Source of the DNA: an uncultured delta proteobacterium
GTDB taxonomy: Bacteria > Desulfobacterota > Binatia > Binatales > Binataceae
Assembly (NCBI GenBank): GCA_963710455.1
Contig: CAVQAG010000013.1
Location: 661,290 to 725,289, forward strand
Length of the DNA: 64,000 bases
Direction of reading: 5' to 3'
In this document: positions 17,748 to 53,332 of the stretch, piece by piece
Numbering within the stretch: position 1 is the first letter of the stretch
Layout of the letters: every line of letters begins with the position of its first letter
Made by a program: the position numbers and the translations under genes
The notes under the pieces: generated by a model
The model's database searches: none
What the model was told of the DNA's origin: nothing
What the model saw: only the letters and a program-made list of their open reading frames with translations

Positions 17748-17763
17748 CGCGCAGGCGCGGTAA

Positions 17764-18141
17764 TTATTGCGGGCGCTGCCCCGCCGTCAACGCTCCGGAT
17801 GCGCGAGTCCCGCGCCGCTCGGCATCGAGCGCGGCGGCGCGCGCCGCCGACACCGCGCATACCAGGTGAATCAGCACTCCCAGCGAGGGCGAGATGTTGT
17901 AGGCCCAGAGCGTTCCGAAAAACCATCCAATCGCTCGTCCGGTGCGCCCGGCGTAAAAATGACCGAGCCCCGGTACCACGCTTAGCACGACGGCGACTAT
18001 CGCGGGCGAAGCCATGTCGTCGAGCCATCGCTGAGTGCCCAACTTCGCGCCGCATCGCTTGCAGAAGACGGCTTGGGCGACGGTCACCGGCTGTCCGCAT
18101 TGCGAGCAGAAGCGCGCCCGCGTGGTTGCCGTATCAGCCAT
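17764..18141 (-). CDS. zinc-ribbon membrane protein
   Basis: Only the last 125 aa of ORF 17764..18516 look coding: MADTATTRARFCSQCG...CKRCG followed by two hydrophobic helices. ATG at 18139-18141. Confidence 0.55.
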   Translation of the reverse strand: MADTATTRARFCSQCGQPVTVAQAVFCKRCGAKLGTQRWLDDMASPAIVAVVLSVVPGLGHFYAGRTGRAIGWFFGTLWAYNISPSLGVLIHLVCAVSAARAAALDAERRGTRASGALTAGQRPQ

Positions 18142-18178
18142 GTCCGGTTCAGCCGTGCCCGAGTAGGAAATCCCGCTA

Positions 18179-19504: not shown

Positions 19505-19752
19505 CGCGGCGAACCCTTTTCAGGCCCTGGTATCTCGGGAATTGCAGTCTCGAGGATTGGCGCAAGCTCTGATGCGGAGTCTGGCAAAGCATTTATCTCG
19601 GATTTCGGCGCTCCTCAATATAATAACTCGGCTCGCGGACGCGGCAAACGTCTGGCGAAGTCCGACCCTATCATACACGGGCGGGTTGCCCCCTTCGCTG
19701 CAAACGGTGCATGATTCCGACTTCACGGACGTGCCATTCGCAGGAGGTTACG

Positions 19753-31950: not shown

Positions 31951-32685
31951 TTGTTCGACAAATTCACCGTCATTCCATCGATCGACCTCAAGGGCGGCGA
32001 AGTCGTGCGCCTGTGGCGCGGCGAGATGGACCGCGCGACCGTGTACGGCCAGAACGCCGCGGCGACAGCGCGCGCCTTCGAGAGCGAGGGGGCGCGGATA
32101 ATCCATGTGGTGGACCTCGACGGAGCGATCGCCGGGGCGCCGCAGAACCTGGAATCGATCCGCGCGATCCGCGCCGCAGTCGCCTGCCTGCTGGATGTGA
32201 GCGGAGGGCTCCGAACGGTCGAGTCGGTGCGTGCGGCGATCTCGGCGGGTGCCGACTACGTGTCTATAGGATCTGCTGCGATGCTCGACCCCTCAATGCT
32301 GGTCAATGTCTGCCGAGAGCATCCAGGACGCGTCTTTGGCTCGCTTGATGTGCGTGATGGTCGTTTGGCCATCAAAGGCTGGGGCGAAACGAGTCAGCTA
32401 GTGGTCGCTGACGCTCTAGAGCGCTTCCAGCGGGCCGGTGTAGCAGCAGTGATATTGACTGACATTTCTCGCGATGGTACCGAGATTGGTGTTGATATAG
32501 AGATGTATGAGCGGCTCGCGCGATCCTCGGAGACGCCGGTAATTGCATCCGGCGGGGTTGCGCGAATCGAAGATCTGGTCGCGTTAAGTCGGCTGTTCCA
32601 GCACGGATTGGCAGGCGCGGTTACGGGACGCGCTCTTTACGAAGGACGTTTCACACTCTCACAGGCCATTGGCGCTATTGTCTAG
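31951..32685 (+). CDS. hisA: ProFAR isomerase
   Basis: VIPSIDLKGGEVVRL, DLDGA, SGGV... TTG start at 31951. Confidence 0.9.
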   Translation: MFDKFTVIPSIDLKGGEVVRLWRGEMDRATVYGQNAAATARAFESEGARIIHVVDLDGAIAGAPQNLESIRAIRAAVACLLDVSGGLRTVESVRAAISAGADYVSIGSAAMLDPSMLVNVCREHPGRVFGSLDVRDGRLAIKGWGETSQLVVADALERFQRAGVAAVILTDISRDGTEIGVDIEMYERLARSSETPVIASGGVARIEDLVALSRLFQHGLAGAVTGRALYEGRFTLSQAIGAIV

Positions 32686-32705
32686 CGCACCGATGCGCGT
32701 TTTTT
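32685..32705 (+). terminator. rho-independent terminator after hisA
   Basis: GCGCA-CCGA-TGCGC hairpin followed by G + T6. Confidence 0.5.
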
Positions 32706-32951
32706 GTTGCTGGCGGCCTGACTACGTTGGCCAAGCAAGATAATTTTCACCGAGAAAAGTGCCAGATATGAAGGCGTTAGCGGCTCCTTGAAGCAAAAGC
32801 TCTAGCCACCAGCAAAATGGCTCTTGTTTCTTGTCATTAAATCGTACAGGATACTTAAGCATAACATAGGTCAGTTGGAGCAAGCCGGCGGAGCGTTTGG
32901 ATCAGAGTTTCGGGGTTTAACGTCTTTCGCGACTAGATTCGGGGGTCTTCG

Positions 32952-34052
32952 ATGAGCACACGTTCTCGGTTCTCTAAAGGCCAGATGCTGGCTCTGTTCA
33001 CGATTATCTTGCCCGTGTTGCTGGGCGTGATGGCCTTGGGCGCGGATTTCGCGATCATCTATCTGAATTGGTCGATGGTCCAGAAGGCCGCTGATGCCGC
33101 GGCGCTGGCGGGAGCCTCGCAGCTCACCGCTGTGCCTGGCTCGGCCCCAAGTGTTACGCCCGCTGCCACAAACTACGCGTACGGTTATGCGTGCCTAAAC
33201 GGCATCAGCGATCCTAGTAATACCTATGCCACGATCTGCCCAACTGAGGCGTCCCATCCCGGAGGATTCGTGGACCAAATCCAGTTTACCAATGTCACTG
33301 ACACCACCGTTTCCGTGGGCATCAAGCGTTCGGTTCCATACTTCTTCGGCAAGATGATCGGCCTGAATACGGCAGCGGTGGCCGCGAAGGCGACTGCGGC
33401 GATCGAAGCCACGGGATCTGTTCCCAGCGGAATGTTTCCGGTCGGACTCCAATGCACTCCCACAGGCAACCCCGCCGCTTGCGATGTATCCAGCTTATTT
33501 AATGCTCAAGCCATCGTCACATTCGGGGCGAAATTCGTCCTCACCAGCGCCAACAGCAATGAGCAGTCGTCCGGTGGCGCGCCCGGCAATTGGGATTGGG
33601 TGGATGTTGGCCAGGGAAACGGCGCGAGCCAGCTAGGCCAAGTATTGCAGAACGGGGCTTCGGAGAGCTTCAGCTTAGGTCAGACAATCAGTAGCGTCCC
33701 AGGCAACAAGGCCAATTCAGGGCCCGCTAAAAATGGCCTTGCTGCGCGACTGGCGGCATGCGGCACGAGCGCAACCGCGCGCCCCAATGGCGACCCATGT
33801 TCGAATGGAGGCAACACCACAGGGCTCAGCTGCGATGACCCTTGTCTGATCACCGTGCCCGCGGTCAACTTTACAGGATGCAATGGCAGTTGCAGCTTGA
33901 CGATAGAAGGCTTTGCGCAGATGTACCTCGAGCAAACCAGTACTACCTCGGCAATCCAGGCATGCTACATCTCGAAAAACACCTGCACGACCCAGGGCAG
34001 CGCCAGCGCACCGAATCTCGGCTCGCTAGCGCCACCGGTTTTGATCAACTAG
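32952..34052 (+). CDS. TadG-like Flp-pilus assembly protein (PF13400-type N-terminus)
   Basis: N-terminus KGQMLALFTIILPVLLGVMALGADFAIIY...QKAADAAALAGA. C-terminal part has GNWDWVDVG, a Cys-rich stretch, and ends GSASAPNLGSLAPPVLIN. Confidence 0.75.
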   Translation: MSTRSRFSKGQMLALFTIILPVLLGVMALGADFAIIYLNWSMVQKAADAAALAGASQLTAVPGSAPSVTPAATNYAYGYACLNGISDPSNTYATICPTEASHPGGFVDQIQFTNVTDTTVSVGIKRSVPYFFGKMIGLNTAAVAAKATAAIEATGSVPSGMFPVGLQCTPTGNPAACDVSSLFNAQAIVTFGAKFVLTSANSNEQSSGGAPGNWDWVDVGQGNGASQLGQVLQNGASESFSLGQTISSVPGNKANSGPAKNGLAARLAACGTSATARPNGDPCSNGGNTTGLSCDDPCLITVPAVNFTGCNGSCSLTIEGFAQMYLEQTSTTSAIQACYISKNTCTTQGSASAPNLGSLAPPVLIN

Positions 34053-34088
34053 CGCGCCCTTGCGATATCTTCCTGCGGAGACCATGAG

Positions 34089-34648
34089 ATGAAAACAGAG
34101 ACCATTAATCGCGCATCCAAAGGGCAGGCGATGACCGAATTTGTGTTCATGGCTTTCGTTGCCTTCATCATATTGTTCGTCGCGATCCAGATGGCCGCCC
34201 TTGGACGCGAGTACATGGCGCTCGGCCAGTTGAACTACCAAGTCACCCGCTGGGCCACCAATCCGGGAAACAACAGCATCGCGGGCTCGAACAGTCCGCA
34301 ATGCGCGGACGTGGCGAACCTCATTAGCGGCGCGGGCGTATCGCCTTATTCGAACGTCACCACCGTGGCCTCCGGGTATATGGGAAAGATCGGGTACGGG
34401 TCTGGTAATACAGTGTGTGGCAACCCGCCGGCTGGAGGAATCGGTGTCGCGATGACTTGCACCGTTGCCGGAGGCACGGGCACAACATCTTGTGCCGCGC
34501 AAAGGCCGCCGGCACGGGAGTGCAGATTGTGCTGACCATGGACACTCGTAAAGCGATATTTTTGAGCACTTCGACAACCAATCCTAATTTCTTGGGAATT
34601 CCGTTCCCCAAGACACTCTCCAGTACCCAGATGATGGTCACCCAATAG
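34089..34648 (+). pseudogene. TadE-like pseudopilin, apparently frameshifted near 34495-34510
   Basis: N-terminus KGQAMTEFVFMAFVAFIILFVAIQMAA (TadE motif). The first frame stops at 34535. A second frame continues AAGTGVQIVLTMDTRKAIFLS...TLSSTQMMVTQ, which is the usual TadE C-terminus, and ends at 34648 just before a terminator. Confidence 0.55.
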
Positions 34649-34679
34649 GACGCTACCGATAAGAGGCAGTCCAAGGCGG

Positions 34680-34710
34680 CGCCGGACCGAATGGTCGGGC
34701 GTCGTTTTTT
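34680..34710 (+). terminator. rho-independent terminator
   Basis: CGCCGGACC-GAAT-GGTCGGGCG hairpin (one mismatch) followed by TCG + T6. Confidence 0.5.
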
Positions 34711-34812
34711 CGTCTTTTCGGATCGTTGCGATTATGCAACCTGGTGGTGGCGTTAACTCTTTTTGTCAATTCAGCGTCTACGTATCAATATTGATTTTAT
34801 TGAACATTTTCA

Positions 34813-34828
34813 TGGCATGCATGATGCT
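34813..34828 (+). promoter_or_regulatory. candidate sigma-54 (-24/-12) promoter
   Basis: TGGCATG-catg-ATGCT compared with consensus TGGCACG-N4-TTGCW. GG and GC have correct spacing. Lies about 50 nt upstream of the TTG start at 34879. Confidence 0.3.
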
Positions 34829-34878
34829 TTCTCGTGGAGGAGCCTTGTCCGAGGGTCGCGTCTACGGGGGAAAAGAAC

Positions 34879-35898
34879 TTGAAGATAAAGCGCGTCGGAG
34901 GCAGGGGGCAGATCTCTGTAGCCCTGATTATCGTGATGACGGTTATTCTGGGCGCCATAGGCTTGGGCGCCGATGCGGCGGTGCTGTATTTGAACTGGGT
35001 TATCCTGCAGAAGGGGGTCGATGCCGCCGCGCTTGCCGGGGCTGGCTATTTGGAGGGCAACTCGCAGGCCGCATCCAACGCCGTTAGCGTCGCCGTGACC
35101 TACGCGCAGAATAACGGCATCAAGAATAGCGAACTTACGGCCGACGGGGGTGGCAACAAGGCATACGTACCAGGTCCCAACTACACGACCATTACGGTCA
35201 CCGCCAAACGCACCGTGCCCTACGCGTTTTTCAAATTGATCGGCCTCTCAAATGGCACGGTAGCAGCCAGCGCGACCGCCCAGATGCCACAGGCGGCAGG
35301 CTGCGTGAACTGCACCAGCGCGGTAGCTACGCCTGGCAGTCAGCCGACCGTCATCCCTGGGAGCATCTGTAGCGCGGTAGGCCAATGCGACGTGCTTCCA
35401 ATTGGCCTCGATGCCACCACGCCTTATCAGTTCGATCAGGCTGTCACATTCAACCAGGGACAGGTCGGCCCCGGTAACTGGGGTTCGCTGGCGTTGGGCG
35501 GCACGGGCGGCTCCAACGAACGCACCAACATCGCGGACGGCTACCAAGGACCGCTTGCGATCAACCAATGGGTCGACACCGAGCCCGGATTCAAGAAGGG
35601 CCCAGTCGGCCAGGGCTTCTCCGATCGCCTCGCGCAGGCTCAGAGCGAATTTCCAAGCGGAACCTTCGACAATCATAGCCCCAACGATCCGCGCGCCGTC
35701 ATCCTGCCGATGGTTGTCTGGAACAGCCCCAACGGCAGAAGCCAGGTCGAGATTGTGGCCTTTGCCGCCGTATGGATCGATTCGGAGAGTGGCGGAACGA
35801 TTCAGGCCCATTTCATCCAGCAGGAGGCCTTCGACAGCACTGGCTCTGCGAGCGCTCCAAACGATGGCGCCATGGGCAGACCGATCCTGATCAAGTAG
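34879..35898 (+). CDS. TadG-like Flp-pilus assembly protein
   Basis: RGQISVALIIVMTVILGAIGLGADAAVLY...QKGVDAAALAGA, then GNWGSLALGG, and ends GSASAPNDGAMGRPILIK. Paralog of 32952..34052. TTG at 34879 after GGGGGA; ORF maximum starts at 34834. Confidence 0.75.
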   Translation: MKIKRVGGRGQISVALIIVMTVILGAIGLGADAAVLYLNWVILQKGVDAAALAGAGYLEGNSQAASNAVSVAVTYAQNNGIKNSELTADGGGNKAYVPGPNYTTITVTAKRTVPYAFFKLIGLSNGTVAASATAQMPQAAGCVNCTSAVATPGSQPTVIPGSICSAVGQCDVLPIGLDATTPYQFDQAVTFNQGQVGPGNWGSLALGGTGGSNERTNIADGYQGPLAINQWVDTEPGFKKGPVGQGFSDRLAQAQSEFPSGTFDNHSPNDPRAVILPMVVWNSPNGRSQVEIVAFAAVWIDSESGGTIQAHFIQQEAFDSTGSASAPNDGAMGRPILIK

Positions 35899-35947
35899 CG
35901 CTCTCGAATATCGTCAGCCCGGCGGAGCGTCAATGCATCCGGCGGGC

Positions 35948-36056
35948 ACATCGAGTCCGGCTCAGGCGACACGTCCCGCTCGTAGCACGCCGGCGAGTGC
36001 CTGCGGATCGACGATCGCGCCCCACGCGGTTGCATATAGCTTCGTCCCGCTTTTCA
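35948..36056 (-). pseudogene. relic fragment of a D-2-hydroxyacid dehydrogenase gene
   Basis: The minus strand reads [36 protein letters not shown]. The intact gene reads [37 protein letters not shown] at 44240-44349. By hand count, about 54/60 nt are identical in the core, including a 23-nt perfect run. Confidence 0.65.
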
Positions 36057-36083
36057 ATCTGCTAAAACAACGATCGTCCGAGG

Positions 36084-36542
36084 CTAGCCCGGCTCGGTTG
36101 CGCTGCCGGACATCGCGGATCTTTGTGCTGCTCGATGTCCGCCGCGCCGCGATGCCGACGCGGTTACGGTGATACTACGTGCAGGAAATCCCCCCAATGC
36201 TAACACCGCCGCATATTGCGGAATCTTTCGGTCAAGCCTGATCGTGAGAACGTTGTTATCCGAGGATAGTTCAGTGAAGACGATCTCGGCGGAGGCGATT
36301 CCTTGACTCTGCGCGTATGCATCAGCCACGCGTACCGCTGCACGCGGATCCTCCGGCAAATACTGGGCACCTCTGTTTACCGCCATAAGCGCCATCAGCT
36401 GAAGATTCTTGACGTCGAGCTCATAGTACTCCCTCGCAAAGGTGCGGTGCACCATCAGTTCAGCCGAGAGAGCGACTCCGGCAAAAACGATGAGCATGAC
36501 TCGGCAGCGAAGTGACAATAAGCCGAACCGTCGACTTGCCAT
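36084..36542 (-). CDS. small TadE/G-like membrane protein
   Basis: MASRRFGLLSLRCRVMLIVFAGVALSA, then a pattern like a TadG N-domain (...AVRVADAYAQSQGI...VLTIRLDRKIPQYAAVLALGG...ITVTASA). Its ATG overlaps the upstream stop (TAATG). Confidence 0.45.
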   Translation of the reverse strand: MASRRFGLLSLRCRVMLIVFAGVALSAELMVHRTFAREYYELDVKNLQLMALMAVNRGAQYLPEDPRAAVRVADAYAQSQGIASAEIVFTELSSDNNVLTIRLDRKIPQYAAVLALGGFPARSITVTASASRRGGHRAAQRSAMSGSATEPG

Positions 36543-36727
36543 TAACACTGCTCGATGATCCTCCTCTGATCGCGCACCCATTCTTTAATCGCTTCGAGAC
36601 TGAACCGCCAATCGGTGCCGATGCGGAAGCCAGGGAGCTTTCTCTGCTTGAGCATGCGATAGATCGTAGTCTTATGAACCTGTAGATATTCCGACAATTC
36701 GTCGACGGTCAAATATTTGCGTTGCAT
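36542..36727 (-). CDS. excisionase-family (HTH_17 / MerR-like) DNA-binding protein
   Basis: MQRKYLTVDELSEYLQVHKTTIYRMLKQRKLPGFRIGTDWRFSLEAI. RBS GGTGAGAGG. Confidence 0.75.
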   Translation of the reverse strand: MQRKYLTVDELSEYLQVHKTTIYRMLKQRKLPGFRIGTDWRFSLEAIKEWVRDQRRIIEQC

Positions 36728-36761
36728 CGTGCCTCTCACCTTCACGTTTACGGCTTAGATT

Positions 36762-37178
36762 CTAACCAGCGAATGAATAGGATCGGGGGCCACACTTGCC
36801 CAGGTACGTACGCAAGGATTCCAGCCCAGAATCCCGCACGGCAATTTTCCAGCCTTCGGGCGACGCCTGCTGCACGTGCCAATGCCCTTCCGCAAGCCGA
36901 ATAATGATAAGCCTATCGTTACCGAGCGAGGCGCTGGCGCGCCCTCCGAAGCGATCCAACGCGAGGCCAAACTCGGCCAGCAACTCTTCCCAGTAGACCC
37001 AAGTCATTCGGCTAGGCGGAGTCGCGAGAGGTCTAATATCTTCTTTCTCAATGGAGTATCGCTCCATCAGAGCTTGAGCCAGGCGAGTCGCGGTTTCAGC
37101 CTCGAACTTGGAGGCCCCTCTTTCCGGATCAATTCGCATCAGCAGTCGTATTTTTCTGAGTGCGTCTTCGGCTCTCAT
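36762..37178 (-). CDS. DUF2786-like protein
   Basis: N-terminus ALRKIRLLMRIDPERGASKFEAETATRLAQALMERYSI resembles the DUF2786 helical hairpin. The C-terminal 90 aa are unknown. Confidence 0.55.
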   Translation of the reverse strand: MRAEDALRKIRLLMRIDPERGASKFEAETATRLAQALMERYSIEKEDIRPLATPPSRMTWVYWEELLAEFGLALDRFGGRASASLGNDRLIIIRLAEGHWHVQQASPEGWKIAVRDSGLESLRTYLGKCGPRSYSFAG

Positions 37179-37289
37179 GCTCTGTTGTTTCTTCCGAGCA
37201 GCTACTTGCCTTCGAATTTCTTGCTTTGGGAGATGGCCGTCGCTTTTATACGAATATTTGAGGATCTCAGACGTCCGGGAAGCTTCGCT

Positions 37290-38498
37290 TTAGCGCGAAA
37301 GACGTAGAAGGATCTCCGAAGCGATGGTCTGAAAGACGCCCTGCAGGTCAGCCGCGGTAGGCGCAAATACCGCCTGGCCTACGGGTTGGTTGGGATCGAA
37401 GGTTGAACTCGCCGGATCGTTGGCAATCTGCTGGAGAAACGCTTCGCTGATCTTGTCGCCCAGGCCGATCGAGTAAATCACAATATTCTGAGTGCGCATG
37501 TTGTTGGCCACCTGTACCGCGCGATACATGGCCTCGTTGGCGATATTCTGCTGGGTCAGCGCCAGAGTTCCACCGGCCATCTGTGAAGGAAAACTCGTCG
37601 CACCGCAGCTGACCCCATTGCCCGTGATCGGGTTCAAGAAAGAGATACCACTGCACCAACCTACGGCCGCCTCCGGTGGAGCGCACCCGCCGAAATTCAG
37701 CAAGGTGGACGGAGGACAATTCAGAGTGTCCTCGACTGTGTTGGCCCATCCGTCAGTAAAGAAGACCGCCACTTCGATCACATTTTGACCCGGCACCACC
37801 GTCACAGTGTTTATCTGGGCCTGTCCATCAAGTAGTCCGCCCTGCGAATAGGTTGCGCCCGCGAAAGCCATGCGGTTGACCGCGTTGGTTATGGGATTGA
37901 GGAAATTTGTGCGCATCGAAACATCGACGCTCGGGACCGACGAGAAACTGACGTCCGCGACCTGGTCCGTCGCATTGTCAAAGTAAGTCAGGAAATTACT
38001 AACCGCTGGCGGAAGCGCTTGCTGTCCGCCGTTTCTGGTCATCGAGCCCGATCTGTCCAGCACCAGCGACATGATCAGCTTGGGGCGGGTCGTCTGAGCA
38101 TTGGAACTGACCTGCAGAGTATTAAGCCCCGGCAGCACGCGGAGAAAGAAAGTGTTGAGCGCGACCGTGGCGCTGACGTTTATCACCGCATTGTTGTTGG
38201 CGTCGGCAGTAATGCCGACTGTGAGCACCGGCGGGCTGATGTCGCGCCCATTGCCCGATCCAAAGTTGGTATTGAACGCGCTTTGCGCGATCGCGGTAGC
38301 CTGGGCCTGCCCCTGGTTTAGGTTGCGCATGGCCGCGAGCGCAGCGGCATCGACCGCCTTGGAGAGGTTGGCTCGCGTGATGAAGGCGAAGCCAAGGTCA
38401 ACTCCCAGGCCCACGAACAGGATGAGAATGGGCAGGCTAAGTGCAAACAGCATAAAGATTTGCGCTCGCGCGCGTCGGGGATTATTGGTTGGTTGCAA
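37290..38498 (-). CDS. TadG-like protein with vWA domain
   Basis: RARAQIFMLFALSLPILILFVGLGVDLG...KAVDAAALAA. MIDAS-like LVLDRSGSM and downstream FFTDG. Probable TTG start at 38498 after AAGGA; ORF maximum is 38948. Confidence 0.8.
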   Translation of the reverse strand: MQPTNNPRRARAQIFMLFALSLPILILFVGLGVDLGFAFITRANLSKAVDAAALAAMRNLNQGQAQATAIAQSAFNTNFGSGNGRDISPPVLTVGITADANNNAVINVSATVALNTFFLRVLPGLNTLQVSSNAQTTRPKLIMSLVLDRSGSMTRNGGQQALPPAVSNFLTYFDNATDQVADVSFSSVPSVDVSMRTNFLNPITNAVNRMAFAGATYSQGGLLDGQAQINTVTVVPGQNVIEVAVFFTDGWANTVEDTLNCPPSTLLNFGGCAPPEAAVGWCSGISFLNPITGNGVSCGATSFPSQMAGGTLALTQQNIANEAMYRAVQVANNMRTQNIVIYSIGLGDKISEAFLQQIANDPASSTFDPNQPVGQAVFAPTAADLQGVFQTIASEILLRLSR

Positions 38499-38521
38499 GT
38501 GAGTAATCCTTTTGCCGGAGT

Positions 38522-39058
38522 TTAGAAATATGCCGACTGATACAAATCCGACGGCATAACCAGCTTCAGCAGATTTTGAATCGGAGTTATCGGCTTGTAT
38601 GAGTAGAAAATTTCCGTGACGTAGATTGTCTGACCGGGCTGCAGCATGGCGGTGGCCGACGGTGGCACTTTCGCCATGTTGCCCACTCCCTTTCCGACCT
38701 TGCTCGTTTGCGATATCCCCCCTTGCGACACCTGGTCGGTGATCGTAAGGACGCGGTTGATGTTGGTGACCGAAGTGATGATCACTTCTCCATTGCGATT
38801 CAGATCCAATTGAGCCTCTCCGGCAATCACGGCCGCGGCGGAGTCCGACAACGTGGTCCCGCGTGACGCCAGGTTGGAACCTTGCCTGGATAGGCTCGCC
38901 ATAACCTGGACGTCGTGGATAGCGCGGCTGAAATCGATCAACATGCACAGCAGGACCAGCATCAGAGCCGCGATGAGCGCGAACTCCGTAGCCGCCTGAC
39001 CCGACCGGGCCGCGGTAATCTTTCTGCCCGCTGAACCGCGATGGTTTGGACGTTCCAT
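38522..39058 (-). CDS. TadE/TadF-like pseudopilin
   Basis: SGQAATEFALIAALMLVLLCMLIDFSR. ATG at 39056-39058. Confidence 0.75.
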   Translation of the reverse strand: MERPNHRGSAGRKITAARSGQAATEFALIAALMLVLLCMLIDFSRAIHDVQVMASLSRQGSNLASRGTTLSDSAAAVIAGEAQLDLNRNGEVIITSVTNINRVLTITDQVSQGGISQTSKVGKGVGNMAKVPPSATAMLQPGQTIYVTEIFYSYKPITPIQNLLKLVMPSDLYQSAYF

Positions 39059-39071
39059 GACACTACCGCCG

Positions 39072-39584
39072 CTACTTGGTGTTGCCGGGAGGAAAAGGCT
39101 CATTTTTGAAACTGCAACTCGAGTTGAAGGTGTAAGTGCCATTCGGAAAGCCACGAGAAACCATCGGTGTCATCAGCTGCAGGTTGGAGGTAACCGAGAT
39201 CGTTACCGTGTCCCCGGGACCGCCGGCGCTGCCGTTGCCGCCCCGCAGGCTCGAAATCTGAATGTTCGATACCTGCGTACCAAACGCCGCTTGTTGCAGC
39301 GTCGCGATTATCGAATTCACGCGTGACAGGGACTGACCCGGGTTTTTGGGGTCCGGAAGGTGGTTACCAGTGGACGCGAACCGGCCCGCCTCCTGCACCG
39401 CATTTTCAACCTCCATTTCCACAAGGAACAGGCGTCCGAAGTCGAACACGGCGAAGATCAGAAAGAAGAACAGAGGCGCGACCAGGAGAAATTCGACCAT
39501 CGCTTGGCCGGCCCTCGCACGGTTCTCAGGCAGCTTGAATGTCGAGGTGAGGGTATGAGGACGGAAGCTGCTGAGTTTGTTCAT
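39072..39584 (-). CDS. TadE-like pseudopilin
   Basis: AGQAMVEFLLVAPLFFFLIFAVFDFGR. Confidence 0.75.
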   Translation of the reverse strand: MNKLSSFRPHTLTSTFKLPENRARAGQAMVEFLLVAPLFFFLIFAVFDFGRLFLVEMEVENAVQEAGRFASTGNHLPDPKNPGQSLSRVNSIIATLQQAAFGTQVSNIQISSLRGGNGSAGGPGDTVTISVTSNLQLMTPMVSRGFPNGTYTFNSSCSFKNEPFPPGNTK

Positions 39585-39602
39585 GACTATCAGAATTATC
39601 GC

Positions 39603-39664
39603 CTTTTGCGCTGTATTGTAAGTTTTAATTATCTAATAGATGATTTCTTTTGCGCTGAGTTGTA
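39603..39664. repeat. two 18-bp direct repeats upstream of the TadE operon
   Basis: CTTTTGCGCTGTATTGTA (39603-39620) and CTTTTGCGCTGAGTTGTA (39647-39664), 16/18 identical, 44 bp apart. Confidence 0.6.
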
Positions 39665-40454
39665 TCAAACTGCTACACTAGCTTTAGTCAAGAATTGACA
39701 TCCTAAAGGTCATGTGAATTTATTACGACTTCCAAATCCAGGCAGATCCCGCTTTGCCGGAGCTTCGCGATACGTCGAGACGCACCTCGCACAGGCCGGC
39801 TCACCATCGCTAATTCGATCGTGATCGACAGGATTCAACGGACGCCGATCGCCTAGTTCGTACCGCTATTCGGATTGCTAGGAGCCGCGCTCCGCTAGCT
39901 CAACTCGATTGACCAGACCGCGTTGCCCTTACGCCTGGCCAGCGAAATTGTGGTCGGCGCCGTCGCGACCAAGGACAAGCTCCCTAAGTTTGAATCCTTT
40001 GACGCAGCTGCCTTAGCCTTGGCTTCCTCAGCGTGAGAGCGCGGCATGAGGCAATTCGGGCGTTTCGTAGAGGATAGCCAGACGGCAAACTTGAGATTCC
40101 CCCAGTCACACTTGCGATGATTCCGGGTGCAGGGTGTCGCTACATAGGTACAGTCAACTCTCTGTTCCCGGGCGAGCACATCGCTGTGCCCACGCCCGAG
40201 TCGATAGTCCTGGGAGCAATCGGCCGCGCTGTCCGATCAAACTCTGGATCATATCGGCGCGGAGGACACAGAGGCTGTCCTGAACTAGCGGACATCTGAT
40301 TTGTATAAGCGGACAGAGCTCGACGTCCCGCGATTTTCGACCGGGATAACATCGTCATCCTCTTACTTATGCGCTCAGTGGAGTGAACCCCTAAAACTGG
40401 ACAGAAAAGCAGGGACGAATTGGACCGGGCGGTGGGCTTATCGGAGGATAGGCC

Positions 40455-40811
40455 ATGTCTCGGCATCGGAGTTTCAGTTCGGAGTTCAAGCGCCAGATCG
40501 CCAAAGAGTTTCTTGACGGACGTGCAGGGCTGCATGAGCTCGCGCGCCGGCATAGTCTCTCGCGCAATCTGATTCGGCTTTGGATTAGCAAGTACGAGGC
40601 GGGCGAGTTCACCGACGAGCTGGCCGAGGCGGTGCACATCGCCCAGTACGAGCGAAAAATAGCTGAGCTCGAACGCAAGGTCGGCCAGCTCACGATGGAA
40701 GTCGATCTGCTCAAAAAAGGGGCGCAGTTGGGGCGCCAGCCCAACGAAGGGAGCTACTCCATCGTGAGCGGCCCGAAGCCGTCTCCGTCGCGCGAGGATG
40801 CCGAATCATGA
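40455..40811 (+). CDS. IS3-family transposase OrfA (HTH + leucine zipper)
   Basis: [20 protein letters not shown]...[18 protein letters not shown]. Confidence 0.9.
40713..40719 (+). other. A6G run, candidate -1 frameshift site for an OrfAB fusion
   Basis: AAAAAAG near the end of orfA. The orfB frame is open from here to 40808. Phasing is AAA-AAA-G rather than the canonical A-AAA-AAG. Confidence 0.45.
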
Positions 40812-41608
40812 GGCTGGCGCGTTCGACTTACTACTACCGCGGCCGCCGCCAGGCGGCGGAGAAAAAGGTTCTGTGCGACCGCATTGAGGCGCTGTGTGCC
40901 GAGTTCCCACGCGACGGCTACCGCCGCATAACCCACCAGCTCCGTGCCGAGGGAATGGTGGTCAATCACAAGGCAGTAGCGCGGCTGATGCGGCAGAACG
41001 GCCTCCAGGTGCGGCCCCTGCGTAAGTTCGTGCGCACCACGGACAGCGACCACGACGGCCCGATCTTTCCCAACCTTGCCCGTGGCTTCCGCCCAACCGG
41101 CCCCAATCAGCTCTGGGTCGGCGATATCACGTACATCCGTATCGTGTCCGGCTTCGTCTACCTGGCAGTGATTCTGGACGCCTGGTCGCGCCGGGTGATT
41201 GGCTATGCGCTTGGTCGGCAGATCGATACACGACTCGCCTTGGCAGCTTTGCGGGCGGCAATCGAGACGCGACGACCACCGCCCGGCTGTATCCATCATT
41301 CCGATCGCGGTGCGCAGTACGCGGCCGAGCCCTATCGCCGGATACTTGCCGAACGCGGATTGGTCGGTTCGATGAGTCGGCGCGGCAATCCATACGACAA
41401 CGGGAAAGCCGAGAGTTTCATGAAGACGATCAAATGCGAAGAGGTCTACCTCAGTGACTATCGGACTCACGCGGACGTGATCGCGAGGCTTCCACGCTTC
41501 ATCGACGAGGTATACAACATTCGCAGACTGCACTCGGCGCTCGGTTATCTTTCGCCCGTGCGGTTCGAGGAACTACACGCCCGCACCCTGGTCCAATCTC
41601 CCGCCTGA
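40808..41608 (+). CDS. IS3-family transposase OrfB (DDE integrase core)
   Basis: [28 protein letters not shown]. It lies in the -1 frame relative to OrfA, with an ATGA overlap. Confidence 0.9.
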
Positions 41609-42042
41609 CAACTGTCCAACCGATGGGGTTCACTCCACAGGTTTCCTTACTTCAGCAGCTAGGGGCAAATCGAAGATCTCCTATGACGCTGCCTAACCCG
41701 AAGTTAGTGCAGCTCCACTTCCAGTCAAATATAGGTAAATGAAAGCGTATCAGATTCGAGTCGGCAGCCATTAGCCCTGAACCGGTATTTTTAGGCCGTA
41801 AGAGAGCGCCCTAGACAAGATTGGTCGTCCTTAGCTAGGATGCGCGCATAGACGAAGCTTCGGCATAAAAAAAACGTCTGATTCGAACGTGACAAAATCT
41901 GCGGCCGAAAGGCCGTTTGCGGGACTGTGACAGGCCGTCTCCGGCTAGGTGATGTTCTTCGGATCTTTGGCTCCCGGCTAGGGTCATTAAGCGTCGCAGT
42001 CTCGCTGGATATCGGCTGCTTGGGCCGTGTGGAAGTTGTGGG

Positions 42043-43428
42043 ATGGCACAGACAGGGGACGCATCAAACGTTGCAAAAGCCGAACAAGCGACAGTCCTGA
42101 TCGTCGAGAACGACGAGGAGGAGGCGCGTTTTCTTGCCAAGGCGCTCGAGCAAAAGGGCTACGACATCGAGATTTGTTCGAGCAACGACGCTGACCTTAC
42201 CAGCGCCGAGCGGGGCTCTGAAGTCATCGTAGCAGCCGTGCAAAGTCCCGGGATGGACGGGCTTGAAATGCTGCGCCGGGTGCGGGCGAGGCGGCCTGGC
42301 GTGGCGATGATCCTGCTCGCGGGAGGAAGCAGCGTTATCTCGGCGGCCGCCGCGATACGTGAGGGCGCCTTCGACTACGTGACCAAGCCATTCAGTGTCG
42401 AGGCGTTGGTCAAGACCGTCGAGCGAGCAATCGAGATGGGCTCGCTGCAGCGCGAGAACCGCCGCCTGCGCCAGCAGCTCGACGTCGCCGGTACGGCCGC
42501 CGGCTTTATCGCCGAAAGCCTGCAGAGCAAGCAGCTGGTCGCGATGATCCGTCGCGTCGCTCCGTCGTGCTCGGCCGCTCTGATCGAAGGTGAAAGTGGC
42601 ACCGGCAAGGAGCTTATCGCTCGCATGCTCCACTTTTGGAGCGCACGCGCGGACGGCGTCTTCGTTGCGATCAACTGCAAAGCTTTCGCGGAGGGCGCGG
42701 TCGAGAGCGAATTGTTCGGGCACGAGAAAGGCTCCTTCACGGGTGCAATCGCGGCGCATGCCGGATGTTTCGAGCGTGCTTCGGGCGGCACTTTGTTCCT
42801 CGACGAGATCGCCGAGGCGGGAACGGATTTCCAGGCCAAGCTTCTGCGCGTGCTCGAGGACGGCGAGCGCGTCGGCGCCTCGAAATTGCGCAAGGTCGAC
42901 GTGCGAATCGTCGCCGCCACCAACCGTATGCTCCGCAATGAAGTCGCCGCCGGCCGTTTCCGCGCTGACCTCTACTTTCGCCTGAACGTCATCCCGGTCA
43001 AGATCGCGCCACTGCGCGAGCGCCGCGAGGATATCCTGCCGCTGGCGCGTCATTTCCTCGCTTATTACACGGCATTGGCCGGGCGCCCGATCACGCTCTC
43101 GCCCGAGGCCGAACGCTCGCTCGTCAATTACCAGTGGCCCGGCAACGTACGCGAACTGGAAAATGTGATCGAGCGCTCCGTGGTCATGAGCGGAGCGGAA
43201 GTTCTCACCCCTGAGGCCTTTGCATTGGAGGGCAATATCGAGCCCACGCCTGAGGGCGAGGAACCGGCTGAGCCCAACGAGACTCTGCAAGCTTATCTCG
43301 ATCGCGCCGCGGTCTCGCGAATCCGTGCGGCGCTCGATGCCGCCAAGGGCAACCGCGCGATCGCCGCGACCACGCTCGGTGTGGACCGCACCACCCTGTA
43401 CCGGTTGATGAAGCGTTTGGGACTGTGA
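42043..43428 (+). CDS. sigma-54-dependent Fis-family transcriptional activator (NtrC-like) with atypical receiver
   Basis: REC-like N-terminus, AAA+ domain (GESGTGKE, ESELFGHEKGSFTGA), and C-terminal Fis HTH (TLGVDRTTLYRLMKRLGL). Confidence 0.9.
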   Translation: MAQTGDASNVAKAEQATVLIVENDEEEARFLAKALEQKGYDIEICSSNDADLTSAERGSEVIVAAVQSPGMDGLEMLRRVRARRPGVAMILLAGGSSVISAAAAIREGAFDYVTKPFSVEALVKTVERAIEMGSLQRENRRLRQQLDVAGTAAGFIAESLQSKQLVAMIRRVAPSCSAALIEGESGTGKELIARMLHFWSARADGVFVAINCKAFAEGAVESELFGHEKGSFTGAIAAHAGCFERASGGTLFLDEIAEAGTDFQAKLLRVLEDGERVGASKLRKVDVRIVAATNRMLRNEVAAGRFRADLYFRLNVIPVKIAPLRERREDILPLARHFLAYYTALAGRPITLSPEAERSLVNYQWPGNVRELENVIERSVVMSGAEVLTPEAFALEGNIEPTPEGEEPAEPNETLQAYLDRAAVSRIRAALDAAKGNRAIAATTLGVDRTTLYRLMKRLGL

Positions 43429-43460
43429 GACGCGAGGTCTCCAGAGAAGAAGTTGCGACG

Positions 43461-43637
43461 TCAACCGGCGGCTGCAGGTCCCGATTGCTCCGCTACCTCT
43501 CCGCTATCGATGCATCGCCAGTAGGGGTCCTCGAAGGTCCACCGACGCCGAATTTCGTCCAGCCCCGAGCCTGGAGTGTCCAAAAAGATGCGTACCCTGC
43601 AACCGTCCCCAGTCTTCAATGTGAGAACTTCCTTCAT
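43461..43637 (-). CDS. possible small protein (58 aa), unknown function
   Basis: MKEVLTLKTGDGCRVRIFLDTPGSGLDEIRRRWTFEDPYWRCIDSGEVAEQSGPAAAG. Below the ORF-track size cut-off. Preceded by TTGCCT-N18-TAGAAT on the minus strand (43667-43696). Confidence 0.3.
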   Translation of the reverse strand: MKEVLTLKTGDGCRVRIFLDTPGSGLDEIRRRWTFEDPYWRCIDSGEVAEQSGPAAAG

Positions 43638-43998
43638 CTCTCGCCAAAATCATCAGATTAGTCTTGATTCTAGTCTATTTAACTTTATTTAGGCAAATGC
43701 TGTTTCTATTGACTTGGCGCACGACGAGCCACTGCACATTGCGCACCTCGCGCGCGGGGCGCACTTGGAAGGATCGCGAGTTATCGTTTGGTAAGGTCCG
43801 TAGCCAAAGGGGAGAGTAATTAATCCCAGGATGCGGCGAATTGCCGGTGCGGCTGCGTCCACATATAAACATGCCACGCAGCGGACCCAGCGGCTAAATT
43901 TCATCCGATGCTACGATCGTCGCCTCCACTTAGGCCAAAATCGCTTTACCTTGCTTAAATCGTCAGATCGGCGGGTGCATACCGTCAAAAAGCCCTTT

Positions 43999-44053
43999 GT
44001 CAACCGTCGCTCAAGTGTCAACCGGTTGACGAGGCTACGCCAGGCCGTCAACG
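43999..44053. repeat. cluster of GTCAAC half-sites including a 14-bp perfect palindrome
   Basis: GTCAACC (43999-44005), GTCAACCGGTTGAC (44017-44030), GTCAACG (44047-44053, overlapping the dehydrogenase stop codon). Confidence 0.6.
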
Positions 44054-45106
44054 CATTCGTACTGCCGGGTTGGCGCAATGCCGCGGCTGCCGTCCCTCAA
44101 ATATGTCGATCAAATTATCCACCGCGAGCTCGGCCATCTTAAGCCGGGTCGCGTGACTCGCGCTGCCGATGTGCGGCGTGATTACGACGTTGGGCAACTC
44201 GAGCAGCGGATCGTTCGCGAGGATAGGCTCAGGGTCGGTCACGTCGAGGGAGGCCCCGGCGATACGTCCCGCTCGCAGAGCGCCGGCGAGCGCCTGCGGA
44301 TCGACGATCGCGCCTCGCGCGGTGTTGATCAAAATGGCTGTTCGTTTCATCGTCGCGATTTCCGATTCGCCGATCATGTGGCGAGTCGCGGCCATCAGCG
44401 GCACATGTATCGAGACGAAGTCCGATTGAGCAAGTAGTCGCTTGAGGCTCATTGGCTCCGCCGGCGAAGCATTGGCGCCGGCGGAAGCCCGAGAAAGCCG
44501 GCCTCGCGCCAGGCGCGACGCGCGGGGGCCCGGCAAATATACAACGCGCATCTGGAAACCCGCGGCGCGCCGCGCCATCGCCTGCCCGATCGCGCCCCAT
44601 CCGATTATCCCCAGCGTGGCTCCGTGAATGTCCCGCCCCAACAGCACCTTCGGTCCCCACGTTCGCCATCGACCATTGCGCACGTAACGATCGCCCTCGG
44701 CGATTCGCCGCGCAGCCGCCATCATCAGCCCAAAGGCTAGGTCGGCGGTAGTTTCGGTCAGGATGCCAGGCGTGTGGCCCACCGCTATACCGGCGCGAGT
44801 CGCGGCGCCGAGGTCGATATTGTCGACGCCCACGGCCAGGTTGCTGATCGCGCAGAGCCGCGGCAGTGCGCGGATAGTCGCGGCATCGAACCGATCGGTG
44901 ACCATGCTGAGCACGCCGTCGGCCTGCCGCGCACGCGCACGCAACTCGGCCGCCGGCGGCGGCATTTCGTCGTCCCACAGATCCACCCGCGCCATCGATG
45001 CCAGCCGTCGGATAGCGGGTTCCGCGATCGGGCGGGTGACGAACACACGCCGTTCGCCTGGCCCGGCACCGCGGGCTTTTACCTGCTTGCCACGAGGATC
45101 CTTCAT
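44048..45106 (-). CDS. D-isomer-specific 2-hydroxyacid dehydrogenase (glyoxylate/hydroxypyruvate reductase-like)
   Basis: NAD-binding GIIGWGAIGQAMARR plus catalytic-region motifs INTARG and TPHIGSAS. Confidence 0.85.
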   Translation of the reverse strand: MKDPRGKQVKARGAGPGERRVFVTRPIAEPAIRRLASMARVDLWDDEMPPPAAELRARARQADGVLSMVTDRFDAATIRALPRLCAISNLAVGVDNIDLGAATRAGIAVGHTPGILTETTADLAFGLMMAAARRIAEGDRYVRNGRWRTWGPKVLLGRDIHGATLGIIGWGAIGQAMARRAAGFQMRVVYLPGPRASRLARGRLSRASAGANASPAEPMSLKRLLAQSDFVSIHVPLMAATRHMIGESEIATMKRTAILINTARGAIVDPQALAGALRAGRIAGASLDVTDPEPILANDPLLELPNVVITPHIGSASHATRLKMAELAVDNLIDIFEGRQPRHCANPAVRMR

Positions 45107-47827: not shown

Positions 47828-49303
47828 CTGAGAGTTTGTGAATATTTGGATTTTTGCGATGGCATCGGCGCGTTGCGAGCGACAGTCACTGATTGGACGA
47901 GGTCAGGTTGTTTAGGCAAAGAGCGCCTGAGGAAGCTGGCGATAGTGGAAGCCTCACAACCAGCCCATTTTGATCGAGCGCATCAGGTTGTAAACCAGCG
48001 CCGACCAGGTCGCGACGATCAGCACCTTGCTGATGCCGCGGACCAGCAAGCGGTCGAGGCCGCGCCAGGTTTTGAGATCGGCGTTGACGGTTTCGGCGGT
48101 GGCGGCCCGCTCCAGGTAGATGCGCTGGCCCTGCGGCGAGCCCATGCGTTTTCGATACTCGGCGATCGCCGCACTGTCGCGGGGCTGCGGGGTGAGCGGA
48201 TCGATGTGATAGGTGCGGTTCTCGCGCGGCGGCACGAACACCTCCACCCCGCGTGCCGCGGCGCGCTCGACCGCGGCAAAGTTCATATAGCCGCCGTCGG
48301 CGAGATGCTGCCTGGGGAGCGCGCCGGTCCGCCGCTCGATCTCATCGAGCATCGGCGCCAACTGCTGGCTGTCGGTCCCAGAGTTGCTCGCCTCGACGCC
48401 CACGATGATCCGGCTTTCGGTGTCAGTAGCGAACTGCAGATTGTAAGCGGGACGGAATCCGCCATCGGCCATCTTCATCACCCGCGCCTCGGGATCAGTG
48501 GTCGAGATGCGGGTTTCAGTTTTGCGCTGCGGATGGTTTTTGGCCTCGGCCTTGTGCGCGCCGAGTTCGCCCAGCCGCGCCACCGCCCGCTGGCAACGCT
48601 CCTCATACTCGCGCGCGGCGCGCAGTTCGGCCGCGCGCTGGCGCGCGCTGCCCTGGGTCGGATCCTGCGCGGCCTCCGCGTCGAGCCGCTCCAGATGCGC
48701 GCGCGCCGCACGCACGCAGGCCTTGAGCCGGGCCTTGCGCCGAAACGACGCCGCCCCCGCGCTCGCCCGCACCCGGGTCCCATCCTGCGCCACCCGGTAA
48801 AGCGTGATCAGATGCTGGTCCAGCAGCAGGCCCAGCACCTGGCTGAACAACTCGTCCAGCGCTGCGCCATGTCGGCTGCGAAAGTCGCTCAGCGTATGAT
48901 AGTTGATGCTCACCCCGGCGCAGATCCAGCGATAGGCCGCGTGCTCGGCGCTGAGCCGCGCGATCTCGCGCGCACTGTTCACGCCTTCGCTCAACCCATA
49001 CAGCCACAGCGCCAGCAGCATCCGCGGGTCAGTCGCATCGCGTCCCGGGCCGTTCTCGCGCGCCTTGATCGGCGCACAGAACCGGCTCAGGTCGAGCCCT
49101 TCCAGTACCCGCCAAATCGCGCGCACCGGATGCTCGGCACCGGCCAGCTTCTCGTAATCCACGGTTTGCAATATCAACTGCTTACGATCGGGTTCCCGCA
49201 GCCGCACCTCTTCGCCCATCACCTCACCTCCGCCTCTCCACCATCATCCACTTCCCATCCCTCAAAGCGATCCCTGTCCGCAAATAAATTCACAAACTCT
49301 GAG
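47828..49303 (-). mobile_element. IS1182-family (IS5-like) insertion sequence
   Basis: Terminal inverted repeats around AGAGTTTGTGAAT (47831-47843 and the reverse complement of 49288-49300), extendable to 16 bp with one mismatch. Single transposase gene. Exact ends and target duplication not resolved. Confidence 0.7.
47954..49222 (-). CDS. IS1182-family DDE transposase
   Basis: 422 aa. N-terminal DUF772-like part (HPVRAIWRVLEGLDLS...DPRMLLALWLYG) and DDE part (TTDPEARVMK, ADGGY). Confidence 0.85.
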   Translation of the reverse strand: MMGEEVRLREPDRKQLILQTVDYEKLAGAEHPVRAIWRVLEGLDLSRFCAPIKARENGPGRDATDPRMLLALWLYGLSEGVNSAREIARLSAEHAAYRWICAGVSINYHTLSDFRSRHGAALDELFSQVLGLLLDQHLITLYRVAQDGTRVRASAGAASFRRKARLKACVRAARAHLERLDAEAAQDPTQGSARQRAAELRAAREYEERCQRAVARLGELGAHKAEAKNHPQRKTETRISTTDPEARVMKMADGGFRPAYNLQFATDTESRIIVGVEASNSGTDSQQLAPMLDEIERRTGALPRQHLADGGYMNFAAVERAAARGVEVFVPPRENRTYHIDPLTPQPRDSAAIAEYRKRMGSPQGQRIYLERAATAETVNADLKTWRGLDRLLVRGISKVLIVATWSALVYNLMRSIKMGWL

Positions 49304-52420: not shown

Positions 52421-52438
52421 GGCTGAGGAGCTGATCTG

Positions 52439-53332
52439 ATGACGCTGCGTCTTTCGGAGCGCTACGTGATGGCGCTCAACCTGTCGCTGATCGCGATCCT
52501 CGCCTATTTCCTCGCGCTCGCCGTCAACGACATCATTCTCGGCCGGGTGGCCAGCGCGTCGGCGCATCTGCCGTCGCTGGTGGGTGCCGCACCGTCCGCT
52601 CCGGTGGTCCGCCCACGCGCTTTTTACAACGCGATTTCTCAGCGCGACATTTTCAACCTGGTGCCGGTGACCGAAGCACCCGCGGAGGTTGCAACCAACC
52701 TGCACATCCATTTACTCGGCACCTCGACGCTTACTCTTTCGCAACCGTTCATCATCGTGGAGGATGACAACAACCACGAGCAATCTCTCTATCGGATGGG
52801 GGACGATATTCCGGACGCGGGCAAGCTGGTCGGTGTATATAAAGATCACGCGATCGTTCTGCACGAGGGGCGCCGTATAAAGATCGAAATGCCGACCACA
52901 AGCGATGGCGCGCCAGGCGAACTGCCACGTCCGTTCGGATTGCCCAGCGCGCCGTTTCGCCGCTTCATGCGCGGGCGCCCTTTCCAGAGCGGAGTGCGCG
53001 AGGTCGATCCCAACCGCTACGTGCTCGATCGTTCTACCGTCAACAACAACCTGAACAACCTGGCCGCGCTGTTCACCCAGGTTCGCGCCATTCCCAACCT
53101 CGGCCCTGACGGCCAATCCCACGGCTTCAAGCTTTCTGAAATTCAGCCCGACTCGATCTTTCAGCAGATCGGATTGCGCGACGGCGACGTGCTGACGGGC
53201 GTTGGCGGGCAAAGCGTGGGCGATCCCGCCCAGGCGATGCAGTTGTTGGCCAGCCTGCGCAACCAGAACTCAATCAGCCTGACCGTGATGCGTGGCGGTC
53301 AGCCCGTCCAGCTCCAGTACAACATCCGCTGA
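52439..53332 (+). CDS. GspC-like protein (TM anchor + PDZ domain)
   Basis: N-terminal TM helix LNLSLIAILAYFLALAV. C-terminal PDZ-like IGLRDGDVLTGVGGQSV...ISLTVMRGGQ. Confidence 0.5.
   Translation: MTLRLSERYVMALNLSLIAILAYFLALAVNDIILGRVASASAHLPSLVGAAPSAPVVRPRAFYNAISQRDIFNLVPVTEAPAEVATNLHIHLLGTSTLTLSQPFIIVEDDNNHEQSLYRMGDDIPDAGKLVGVYKDHAIVLHEGRRIKIEMPTTSDGAPGELPRPFGLPSAPFRRFMRGRPFQSGVREVDPNRYVLDRSTVNNNLNNLAALFTQVRAIPNLGPDGQSHGFKLSEIQPDSIFQQIGLRDGDVLTGVGGQSVGDPAQAMQLLASLRNQNSISLTVMRGGQPVQLQYNIR

Follow-up and report, generated by a model that had tools for sequence, protein, structure and literature searches.

A 64-kb stretch of DNA from an uncultured member of the Binataceae, here called the window, contains two sets of genes related to the tadE and tadG genes of Tad (type IVc) pili. 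Set 1 (A-B-C) is encoded on the plus strand directly after the intrinsic terminator of hisA, while set 2 is transcribed from the minus strand in the order I, H, G, F, E, D and consists of a triad of two TadE-like proteins and a TadG-like protein with a domain of the von Willebrand factor A (vWA) type, followed by three companion genes (Table 1). An initial annotation had described this region as an island of lower G+C content that begins at the hisA terminator, harbors an IS3 element, a sigma-54 activator and a gene relic between its two operons, and is devoid of pilus machinery. All open reading frames (ORFs) listed there are present at their coordinates, as are the terminator, the IS3 element, the activator and the relic, an 88-nt fragment of a 2-hydroxyacid dehydrogenase gene, and G+C content is indeed lower in the island (~0.58) than in its flanks (~0.635). 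Three start codons had to be revised: G begins at TTG 38498 instead of 38948, a choice backed by homologs of 402 aa, H at ATG 39058, in agreement with the length of its ortholog in the related locus L010 (L numbers denote related loci throughout), and D at ATG 36542.

Table 1. Position and basis of identification of the features discussed in the text (window coordinates; aa, amino acids; HTH, helix-turn-helix).
Feature	Coordinates	Strand	Basis and remarks
Intrinsic terminator of hisA	32685..32707	+	Terminator scan: GCGCACCGATGCGC followed by T-run; left edge of pilin-gene slot
A, TadG-related without vWA, 366 aa	32952..34052	+	Pfam Tad PF13400, 25.8 bits, above cut-off
B, TadE-like pseudopilin, G/QAMTEF	34089..34648	+	Profile-profile match to TadE; frameshifted
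Sigma-54-type -24/-12 element upstream of C, TGGCATGCATGATGCT	34813..34828	+	GG-N10-GC scan
C, TadG-related paralog of A	34834..35898	+	Tad and Tad_C slightly under cut-off; paralogy with A
Relic, 3' part of 2-hydroxyacid dehydrogenase gene; left repeat copy	35943..36030	-	In-frame stop; 84% identical to 44236-44323
D, short membrane protein, 152 aa from ATG 36542	36084..36542	-	Weak profile likeness to A family
E, excisionase-family HTH protein, 67 aa	36542..36745	-	Pfam HTH_17 1.8e-17; TIGR01764 'excise' 4.5e-17
F, DUF2786 protein, 138 aa	36762..37178	-	Pfam DUF2786 8.8e-6, 26 bits
G, TadG-vWA, 402 aa, TTG start 38498	37290..38498	-	VWA 4.5e-11; Tad 5.7e-8, 33.4 bits
H, second TadE/TadF-type pseudopilin, 178 aa, G/QAATEF	38522..39058	-	Pfam TadE 1.6e-10, 41.4 bits
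I, TadE pseudopilin, 170 aa, G/QAMVEF	39072..39584	-	Pfam TadE 6e-14, 52.3 bits; dN/dS 0.09-0.11
IS3-family element	40379..41637	+	orfA 40455-40811, orfB 40808-41608; HTH_Tnp_1, rve (Pfam)
NtrC-type sigma-54 response regulator (REC, AAA+, Fis HTH)	42043..43428	+	Pfam Sigma54_activat 1.9e-59
Right repeat copy inside intact 2-hydroxyacid dehydrogenase gene (44048-45106)	44236..44323	-	Pfam 2-Hacid_dh

With regard to the identity of the encoded proteins, the seven TadE/TadG-type N-termini claimed in the initial annotation could be substantiated in six cases by Pfam or profile comparisons, while likeness is weak for the seventh, D. At Pfam cut-offs of 22.3 bits for Tad (PF13400), 22.9 bits for TadE (PF07811) and 23.9 bits for DUF2786, TadE was recognized in I and H and Tad in G and A, while C fell slightly short for Tad (21.3 bits) and neither B nor D matched any Pfam or NCBIfam model. 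NCBIfam provided useful names for none of the proteins A to D and F to I. A profile built from the B family nevertheless aligned with the TadE profile (hhalign probability 94.8%, E 5e-8). The corresponding comparison of D with the A family gave a weak match (probability 51%, E 1.6e-4) that covers the N-terminal half of that family, with its N-terminal helix and Tad_C part, while a relationship of D to the G family was ruled out, as profile comparison gave no match. The prepilin-peptidase site G/xxxxE(F/Y) and the adjoining hydrophobic helix are intact in I, H and B.

Proteins A and C are paralogs that share 31% identity over their full length (E 8e-33), and a vWA domain is present in neither. 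A consists of a Tad helix at the N-terminus, a pilin domain of the Tad_C-like type, a cysteine-rich C-terminal domain and, at its extreme C-terminus, a conserved tail. Its AlphaFold2 (AF2) model features a long N-terminal helix followed by a beta-sheet and did not match any fold in the PDB (best match E 0.39). Among 229 homologs of A, all those with a named source stem from Binataceae metagenome-assembled genomes (MAGs), some of them annotated as 'TadG-related'. For C, translation likely begins at TTG 34879, downstream of a GGGGGA ribosome-binding site, and the ortholog in L007, the closest of the representative genomes scanned, is 82% identical. The metal ion-dependent adhesion site (MIDAS) that had been noticed in a single protein belongs to G, in which the residues D148-x-S150-x-S152, T248 and D348 as well as four cysteines are invariant across 11 homologs of 64-87% identity. 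More than 1100 homologs of G were found, the closest of which reside in MAGs labelled Candidatus Binataceae. As to the companion genes, F is kept 3' of G in L001, L002, L007, L008 and L009, and D is kept downstream of the HTH gene in L001, L007, L008 and L009; in the window, the start of D and the stop of E overlap by 1 nt.

Neither set is accompanied by the genes for a pilus machine. Pfam analysis of the approximately 50 window ORFs revealed no Tad machinery, the remaining genes being solely housekeeping or metabolic ones, two transposase genes and a gene for a lone GspC-like protein. Searching the window by tblastn with CpaB, CpaC, CpaE, CpaF, TadB and TadC from a Binataceae relative returned zero matches, the Walker A motif of secretion ATPases (T2SSE) is absent from all six reading frames of the window, and Flp was detected in the window neither by a motif scan that recovers Flp in 15 related loci nor by tblastn with Flp from four relatives. 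In the stretches 39585-40460, 41600-42050 and 43429-44050, no leftovers of tadC or other core genes were found, the sole match being a small ORF at 43461-43637 that is described below.

To place the two sets in a wider context, we compared them with 80 loci obtained by a scan of species-representative genomes and belonging to three groups, the Binataceae/Binatia, the Acidobacteriota/Terriglobia and the Verrucomicrobiia, with some comparisons spanning 86 related loci. Many of the Binataceae/Binatia loci have been deposited merely as uncultured delta- or proteobacteria, and the best match of the window among the scanned species representatives was 82%. The order TadE-TadE-TadG-vWA is retained in nearly all of the 86 loci, and several genomes each contributed at least two triads. 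Within 10 kb of the triad, a cpaB-cpaC-cpaE-cpaF-tadB-tadC operon that is either complete or truncated by the end of the locus was found in at least 11 of the 80 loci (L010, L029, L033, L046, L047, L052, L054, L055, L075, L085 and L086), a count that is a lower bound as many loci are truncated by contig ends; in the remaining loci, no linked core operon was seen beside the triad. In the Binataceae locus L033, for example, the triad is followed by a sigma-54 response regulator gene and then, on the opposite strand, by tadC-tadB-cpaF-cpaE-cpaC-cpaB, and in L010 the G protein encoded next to such an operon is 77% identical to that of the window.

This linkage bears on the second suggestion made in the initial annotation, a pseudopilin-based system that can do without the canonical machinery. 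In such a case, the pseudopilins and TadG-like proteins would need no Tad motor and could serve, for instance, as vWA adhesins anchored in the membrane or as components of a different secretion system. The window lacks machinery, the TadG-like proteins do not carry the Glu+5 processing signature and could thus remain anchored in the membrane, and an orphan GspC-like protein is encoded at 52427-53332. However, the three TadE-like proteins have kept the prepilin-peptidase site, 11 relatives have the triad within canonical tad loci, and in none of the 86 loci is it linked to a gene for an alternative ATPase or platform. There is no sign of a substitute motor. We regard independence from the canonical machinery as very improbable.

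The position of set 1 proved to be conserved as well. The slot following hisA is occupied by A-B in L006 and by A-B-C in L007, where the dehydrogenase gene, an flp gene (13020-13225) and the D-to-I cassette come next. In eight other Binatia loci, a triad is located downstream of hisA: the order hisA, triad, dehydrogenase, ACS is found in L037, L049, L063 and L084, the triad lies between hisA and a directly following ACS gene in L026, L040 and L083, and in L064 the contig ends shortly beyond the triad. L049 contains two tandem triads, and flp genes are inserted between hisA and the triad in L026 (~7600-8100) and L049 (~7600). Because A-B(-C) or flp and triads occur there in other Binatia, the region between hisA and the dehydrogenase/ACS genes appears as a long-standing home for pilin genes in this class and not as a recent landing pad. 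From hisA to the dehydrogenase, synteny holds for A-B or A-B-C, while the position of the D-to-I cassette varies: it lies on the other side of the dehydrogenase gene in L007, occupies different places in L001, L009 and L010, and is missing from L006.

Rates of substitution were estimated by comparison with L007, L010 and L006; synonymous divergence (dS) is near saturation for some pairs, so that the resulting ratios of nonsynonymous to synonymous substitution (dN/dS) are rough values. They amount to 0.07-0.19 for A, C, G, H and I (0.12 for C and 0.07-0.13 for G), compared with 0.13 for hisA and 0.12 for the dehydrogenase, and indicate purifying selection on these five genes that is unlike pseudogene decay.

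Taken together, the association of the triad with the core operon in 11 of 80 loci, its presence in several copies per genome, the signature of purifying selection and a precedent in Myxococcus support the proposal, put forward in the initial annotation, of a swappable tip or minor-pilin module for a machine encoded elsewhere. In Myxococcus xanthus, four kilLMN clusters specify TadE/F/G-like proteins, three of these clusters are located away from the kil core genes, and they form alternative heterotrimeric tips for one and the same Kil Tad machine; TadEFG tips have been predicted in many bacteria (PMC12075869). It is therefore likely that the window harbors two paralogous sets of Tad minor-pilin/tip-complex genes that serve a Tad machine encoded at another site in the genome, where flp, a gene for a prepilin peptidase and a locus with the tad core genes would presumably reside. 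Set 1 would be the resident of the hisA-to-dehydrogenase/ACS slot, the usual site of flp and the TadE-TadE-TadG-vWA triad in Binatia, and set 2 would be a triad that, together with its companions F, E and D, sits on an inserted 8.3-kb segment along with the IS3 element and a Tad-associated activator.

In the mechanism that we propose, a peptidase of the TadV/CpaA type would cleave the three TadE-like proteins after the glycine of the G/QAxxEF motif. Their N-terminal helices would then bundle in the inner membrane with the helix of a TadG-like protein, and the resulting complex would prime Flp polymerization and finish at the tip of the pilus. The extreme C-terminal strand of the TadG-like protein would complete a pilin-like beta-sheet, as described for CpaL, and either the vWA MIDAS domain of G or the cysteine-rich domains of A and C would be exposed at the tip and determine what the pilus binds. 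The sigma-54 activator would turn on at least C.

The conservation of the C-terminus fits the role proposed for it. The initial annotation had recognized a C-terminal tag in the two large TadG-like paralogs; A and C do share it, but it is not limited to these two proteins and instead common to the whole A/C family, with G357, P362 and L364 invariant in 37 sequences. The G family likewise has a conserved C-terminus (...ILLRLS(R/Q)). In the TadG-type protein CpaL, the extreme C-terminal beta-strand completes the protein's own pilin-like sheet and is required for Tad pilus assembly (PMC13533445, 2026). By analogy, and judging from conservation and a model of low confidence, the tag of the A/C family most likely marks such a sheet-completing strand, and the conserved C-terminus of the G family would fit one as well.

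The sigma-54 response regulator encoded within the inserted segment fits into this picture. Its counterpart in L010 is 83% identical (tblastn) and located directly upstream of tadC-tadB-cpaF, while 60-61% identity was found with the proteins from L031, L033 and L054. Because of the close relative adjoining core tad genes in L010, the window activator can be assigned on sequence grounds to a Tad-linked family and is not regarded as incidental cargo. The predicted -24/-12 element upstream of C is conserved at the matching position in L007 (TGGCACATAAGATGCT). Elements of the form TGGCAC-N5-ATGCG precede many of the Binatia triads, TGGCAC-N5-(A/T)TGC(G/T) is found upstream of the first TadE gene in L023, L037, L054, L059, L063, L066, L083 and L084, and in several acidobacterial loci TGGAACTCAACCTGCT occurs upstream of the triad. 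Upstream of A in the window, no sigma-54 promoter was found. Between the activator and dehydrogenase genes, a small minus-strand ORF (43461-43637, 58 aa) is similar to ORFs of L016 and L071; in both of these loci, an flp gene lies several hundred bases downstream of the ORF.

Several observations weigh against a role of the two sets as tip modules of a distant Tad machine. No core Tad gene, flp or prepilin peptidase gene occurs in the window, and among the matches listed, relatives of the Binataceae proteins CpaF, TadB, TadC and CpaE are not found on the window's contig (856,968 bp). The AF2 model of A is of moderate overall confidence (mean predicted local distance difference test score, pLDDT, 70.6) and, in its tail, predicts a short strand at residues 362-363 preceded by residues 355-361 with pLDDT below 50. 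Heterotrimers of I-H-G or A-B-C are putative assemblies deduced from the genes, no good sigma-54 element was found upstream of I, and no role in Tad pili is known for D, E and F. Finally, B is frameshifted: as read, it comprises 148 aa and ends at 34535, while its orthologs are 189-205 aa long and extend to 34648 in a different frame, and tblastn with the L005, L006 and L007 orthologs changes frame near 34502-34510, within a GGCCGCCGGC run. This frameshift may be an assembly error or may mark a true pseudogene; an error is conceivable because the run is GC-rich, the metagenome was apparently assembled from long reads, and the related assembly L006 contains many split genes.

Some of these features would also be expected if the lineage had lost its Tad machine and the pseudopilin genes were leftovers on their way to becoming pseudogenes. 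The absence of flp and core genes across 64 kb agrees with decay, as does the retention of flp in the corresponding region of L007, the missing TadB relative among the matches listed for the contig, the frameshift in B and the presence of a dehydrogenase relic and an IS3 element. Yet dN/dS of the pilin-like genes (0.07-0.19) is in the range of neighboring housekeeping genes, MIDAS and cysteine residues as well as processing sites are intact, the sigma-54 activator is intact, and the sole frameshift lies in the GC-rich run mentioned above. A decaying remnant is therefore considered quite unlikely.

The lower G+C content of the region had been taken as a sign of a single acquired island. In 63 of 68 loci, however, triad G+C lies below that of the flanks (by 4.2 points on average), including loci in the syntenic slot and those linked to core genes. 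Low G+C is thus a family-wide property and composition does not constitute evidence of transfer. What looks inserted is only the 8.3-kb segment 36031-44235, which contains D-E-F-G-H-I, the IS3 element and the sigma-54 activator, while A-B(-C) is syntenic after hisA in L006 and L007. The segment is flanked by an 88-nt direct repeat with copies that are 84% identical and spaced by 8293 nt; the relic that forms the left copy has further matches in the L006 and L007 dehydrogenase genes. The IS3 element has 27-nt terminal inverted repeats and an intact CAG target-site duplication, so that it represents a simple later insertion and was ruled out as the cause of the rearrangement.

These findings raise the possibility that I-H-G-F-E-D is a self-contained unit that has moved or been copied between pilin loci as cargo of an acquired element. 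Evidence for this stems from a single MAG, in which a 3,638-bp block that is 99.7% identical occurs in two unrelated contexts (L007 8979-12616 and L008 2021-5658). It comprises TadE-TadE-TadG-vWA-DUF2786-HTH-D and extends from the region encoding the mature N-terminus of the first TadE protein, where its left edge is exactly located, to 312 bp past D, which suggests a recent duplication or gene conversion of tip cassettes beginning in conserved helix-coding sequence. In line with mobility, the window block lies within a segment bracketed by a direct repeat, E is an excisionase-family HTH protein, and the regions upstream of I differ among relatives. In L003 (11757-19133), which is identical with locus L011, genes for VirB8, VirB9-like (CagX) and VirB10-like (TrbI) proteins come directly after the triad, along with those for an S26 peptidase, for TraD, for a relaxase and for a coupling protein; here, a conjugative element abuts or carries the triad.

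On the other hand, no integrase or recombinase is encoded in the segment apart from that of the IS3 element, itself a simple insertion, no tRNA gene was found nearby, low G+C is family-wide and hence no sign of transfer, and L007 and L008 could be two strains binned together. Transfer of the unit as mobile cargo is considered unlikely, and the same holds for the conceivable route, recombination at the conserved helix-coding 5' end aided by the excisionase-like HTH and DUF2786 proteins. Quite unlikely, too, is a more specific version, in which the 3.6-kb block that starts with the mature part of TadE and ends with D would be a dedicated exchangeable tip cassette, copied between pilin loci by recombination beginning in the conserved helix-coding sequence. 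Such copying would be a kind of tip switching, programmed or frequent, that is comparable to the variation of pilin cassettes and involves the HTH and DUF2786 proteins. In any case, mobility concerns the arrival of the genes and is compatible with their function as a tip module.

As an orphan tip module, the arrangement in the window resembles the Kil Tips of Myxococcus (PMC12075869) in that paralogous TadE/TadF/TadG-like sets mostly lie away from the genes for the core machine, that the large TadG-like member has a variable, disulfide-rich C-terminal domain without a match in the PDB, and that one orphan Kil cluster holds an flp gene, as do relatives of the window. The layout of orphan tip sets is thus already known, and the window is a further example. 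It differs in featuring a large subunit with a vWA/MIDAS domain, in a first set made up of two large subunits and one small one, in the accompaniment of the triad by DUF2786, excisionase-like HTH and short TadG-like genes, and in its link to sigma-54; moreover, the host is an uncultured member of the Binataceae without a known predatory lifestyle, and its core machine is presumed. With the canonical tadE-tadF-tadG tail of Aggregatibacter, Pseudomonas and Bradyrhizobium, the window sets share the order E-F-G, in which two G/xxxxE pseudopilins precede a TadG protein that begins with a Tad helix. Unlike that tail, however, they are not attached to rcpCAB-tadZABCD, occur as two sets and are linked to a sigma-54 activator. 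A large TadG/CpaL-like protein with an adhesin-type middle domain and a conserved extreme C-terminal strand, alongside two small minor pilins, is also known from CpaJ/CpaK/CpaL of Caulobacter (PMC13533445, PMC12607857), a putative likeness of layout in which the role of the strand in the window proteins is suggested by conservation and a low-confidence model.

If set 1 and set 2 are indeed tip modules, the concept of interchangeable tips, several of which serve one Tad machine, would extend to the Binatia, Acidobacteriota and Verrucomicrobiia, widespread uncultured lineages of soil. Distinctive features are the conserved pilin-gene slot beside hisA, the apparent sigma-54 control of tip genes, and near-identical copies of tip cassettes in differing contexts that suggest gene conversion between tip sets. 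For annotation, a foreign island or a new kind of system should not be deduced from a low G+C content and a lack of machinery in the vicinity of TadE/F/G genes.

A few further genes in the window deserve mention. The GspC-like protein is encoded on the plus strand and combines T2SSC and PDZ domains, and other type II secretion genes are absent from its vicinity. The second transposase gene (DDE_Tnp_1/DUF772, IS5-like) occupies positions 47954-49243 on the minus strand, directly past the ACS gene. At 16065-19519, also on the minus strand, a Ser/Thr protein kinase gene adjoins a gene for a protein with two FHA (YscD-like) domains, a pair that is apparently unrelated to the pilin genes.

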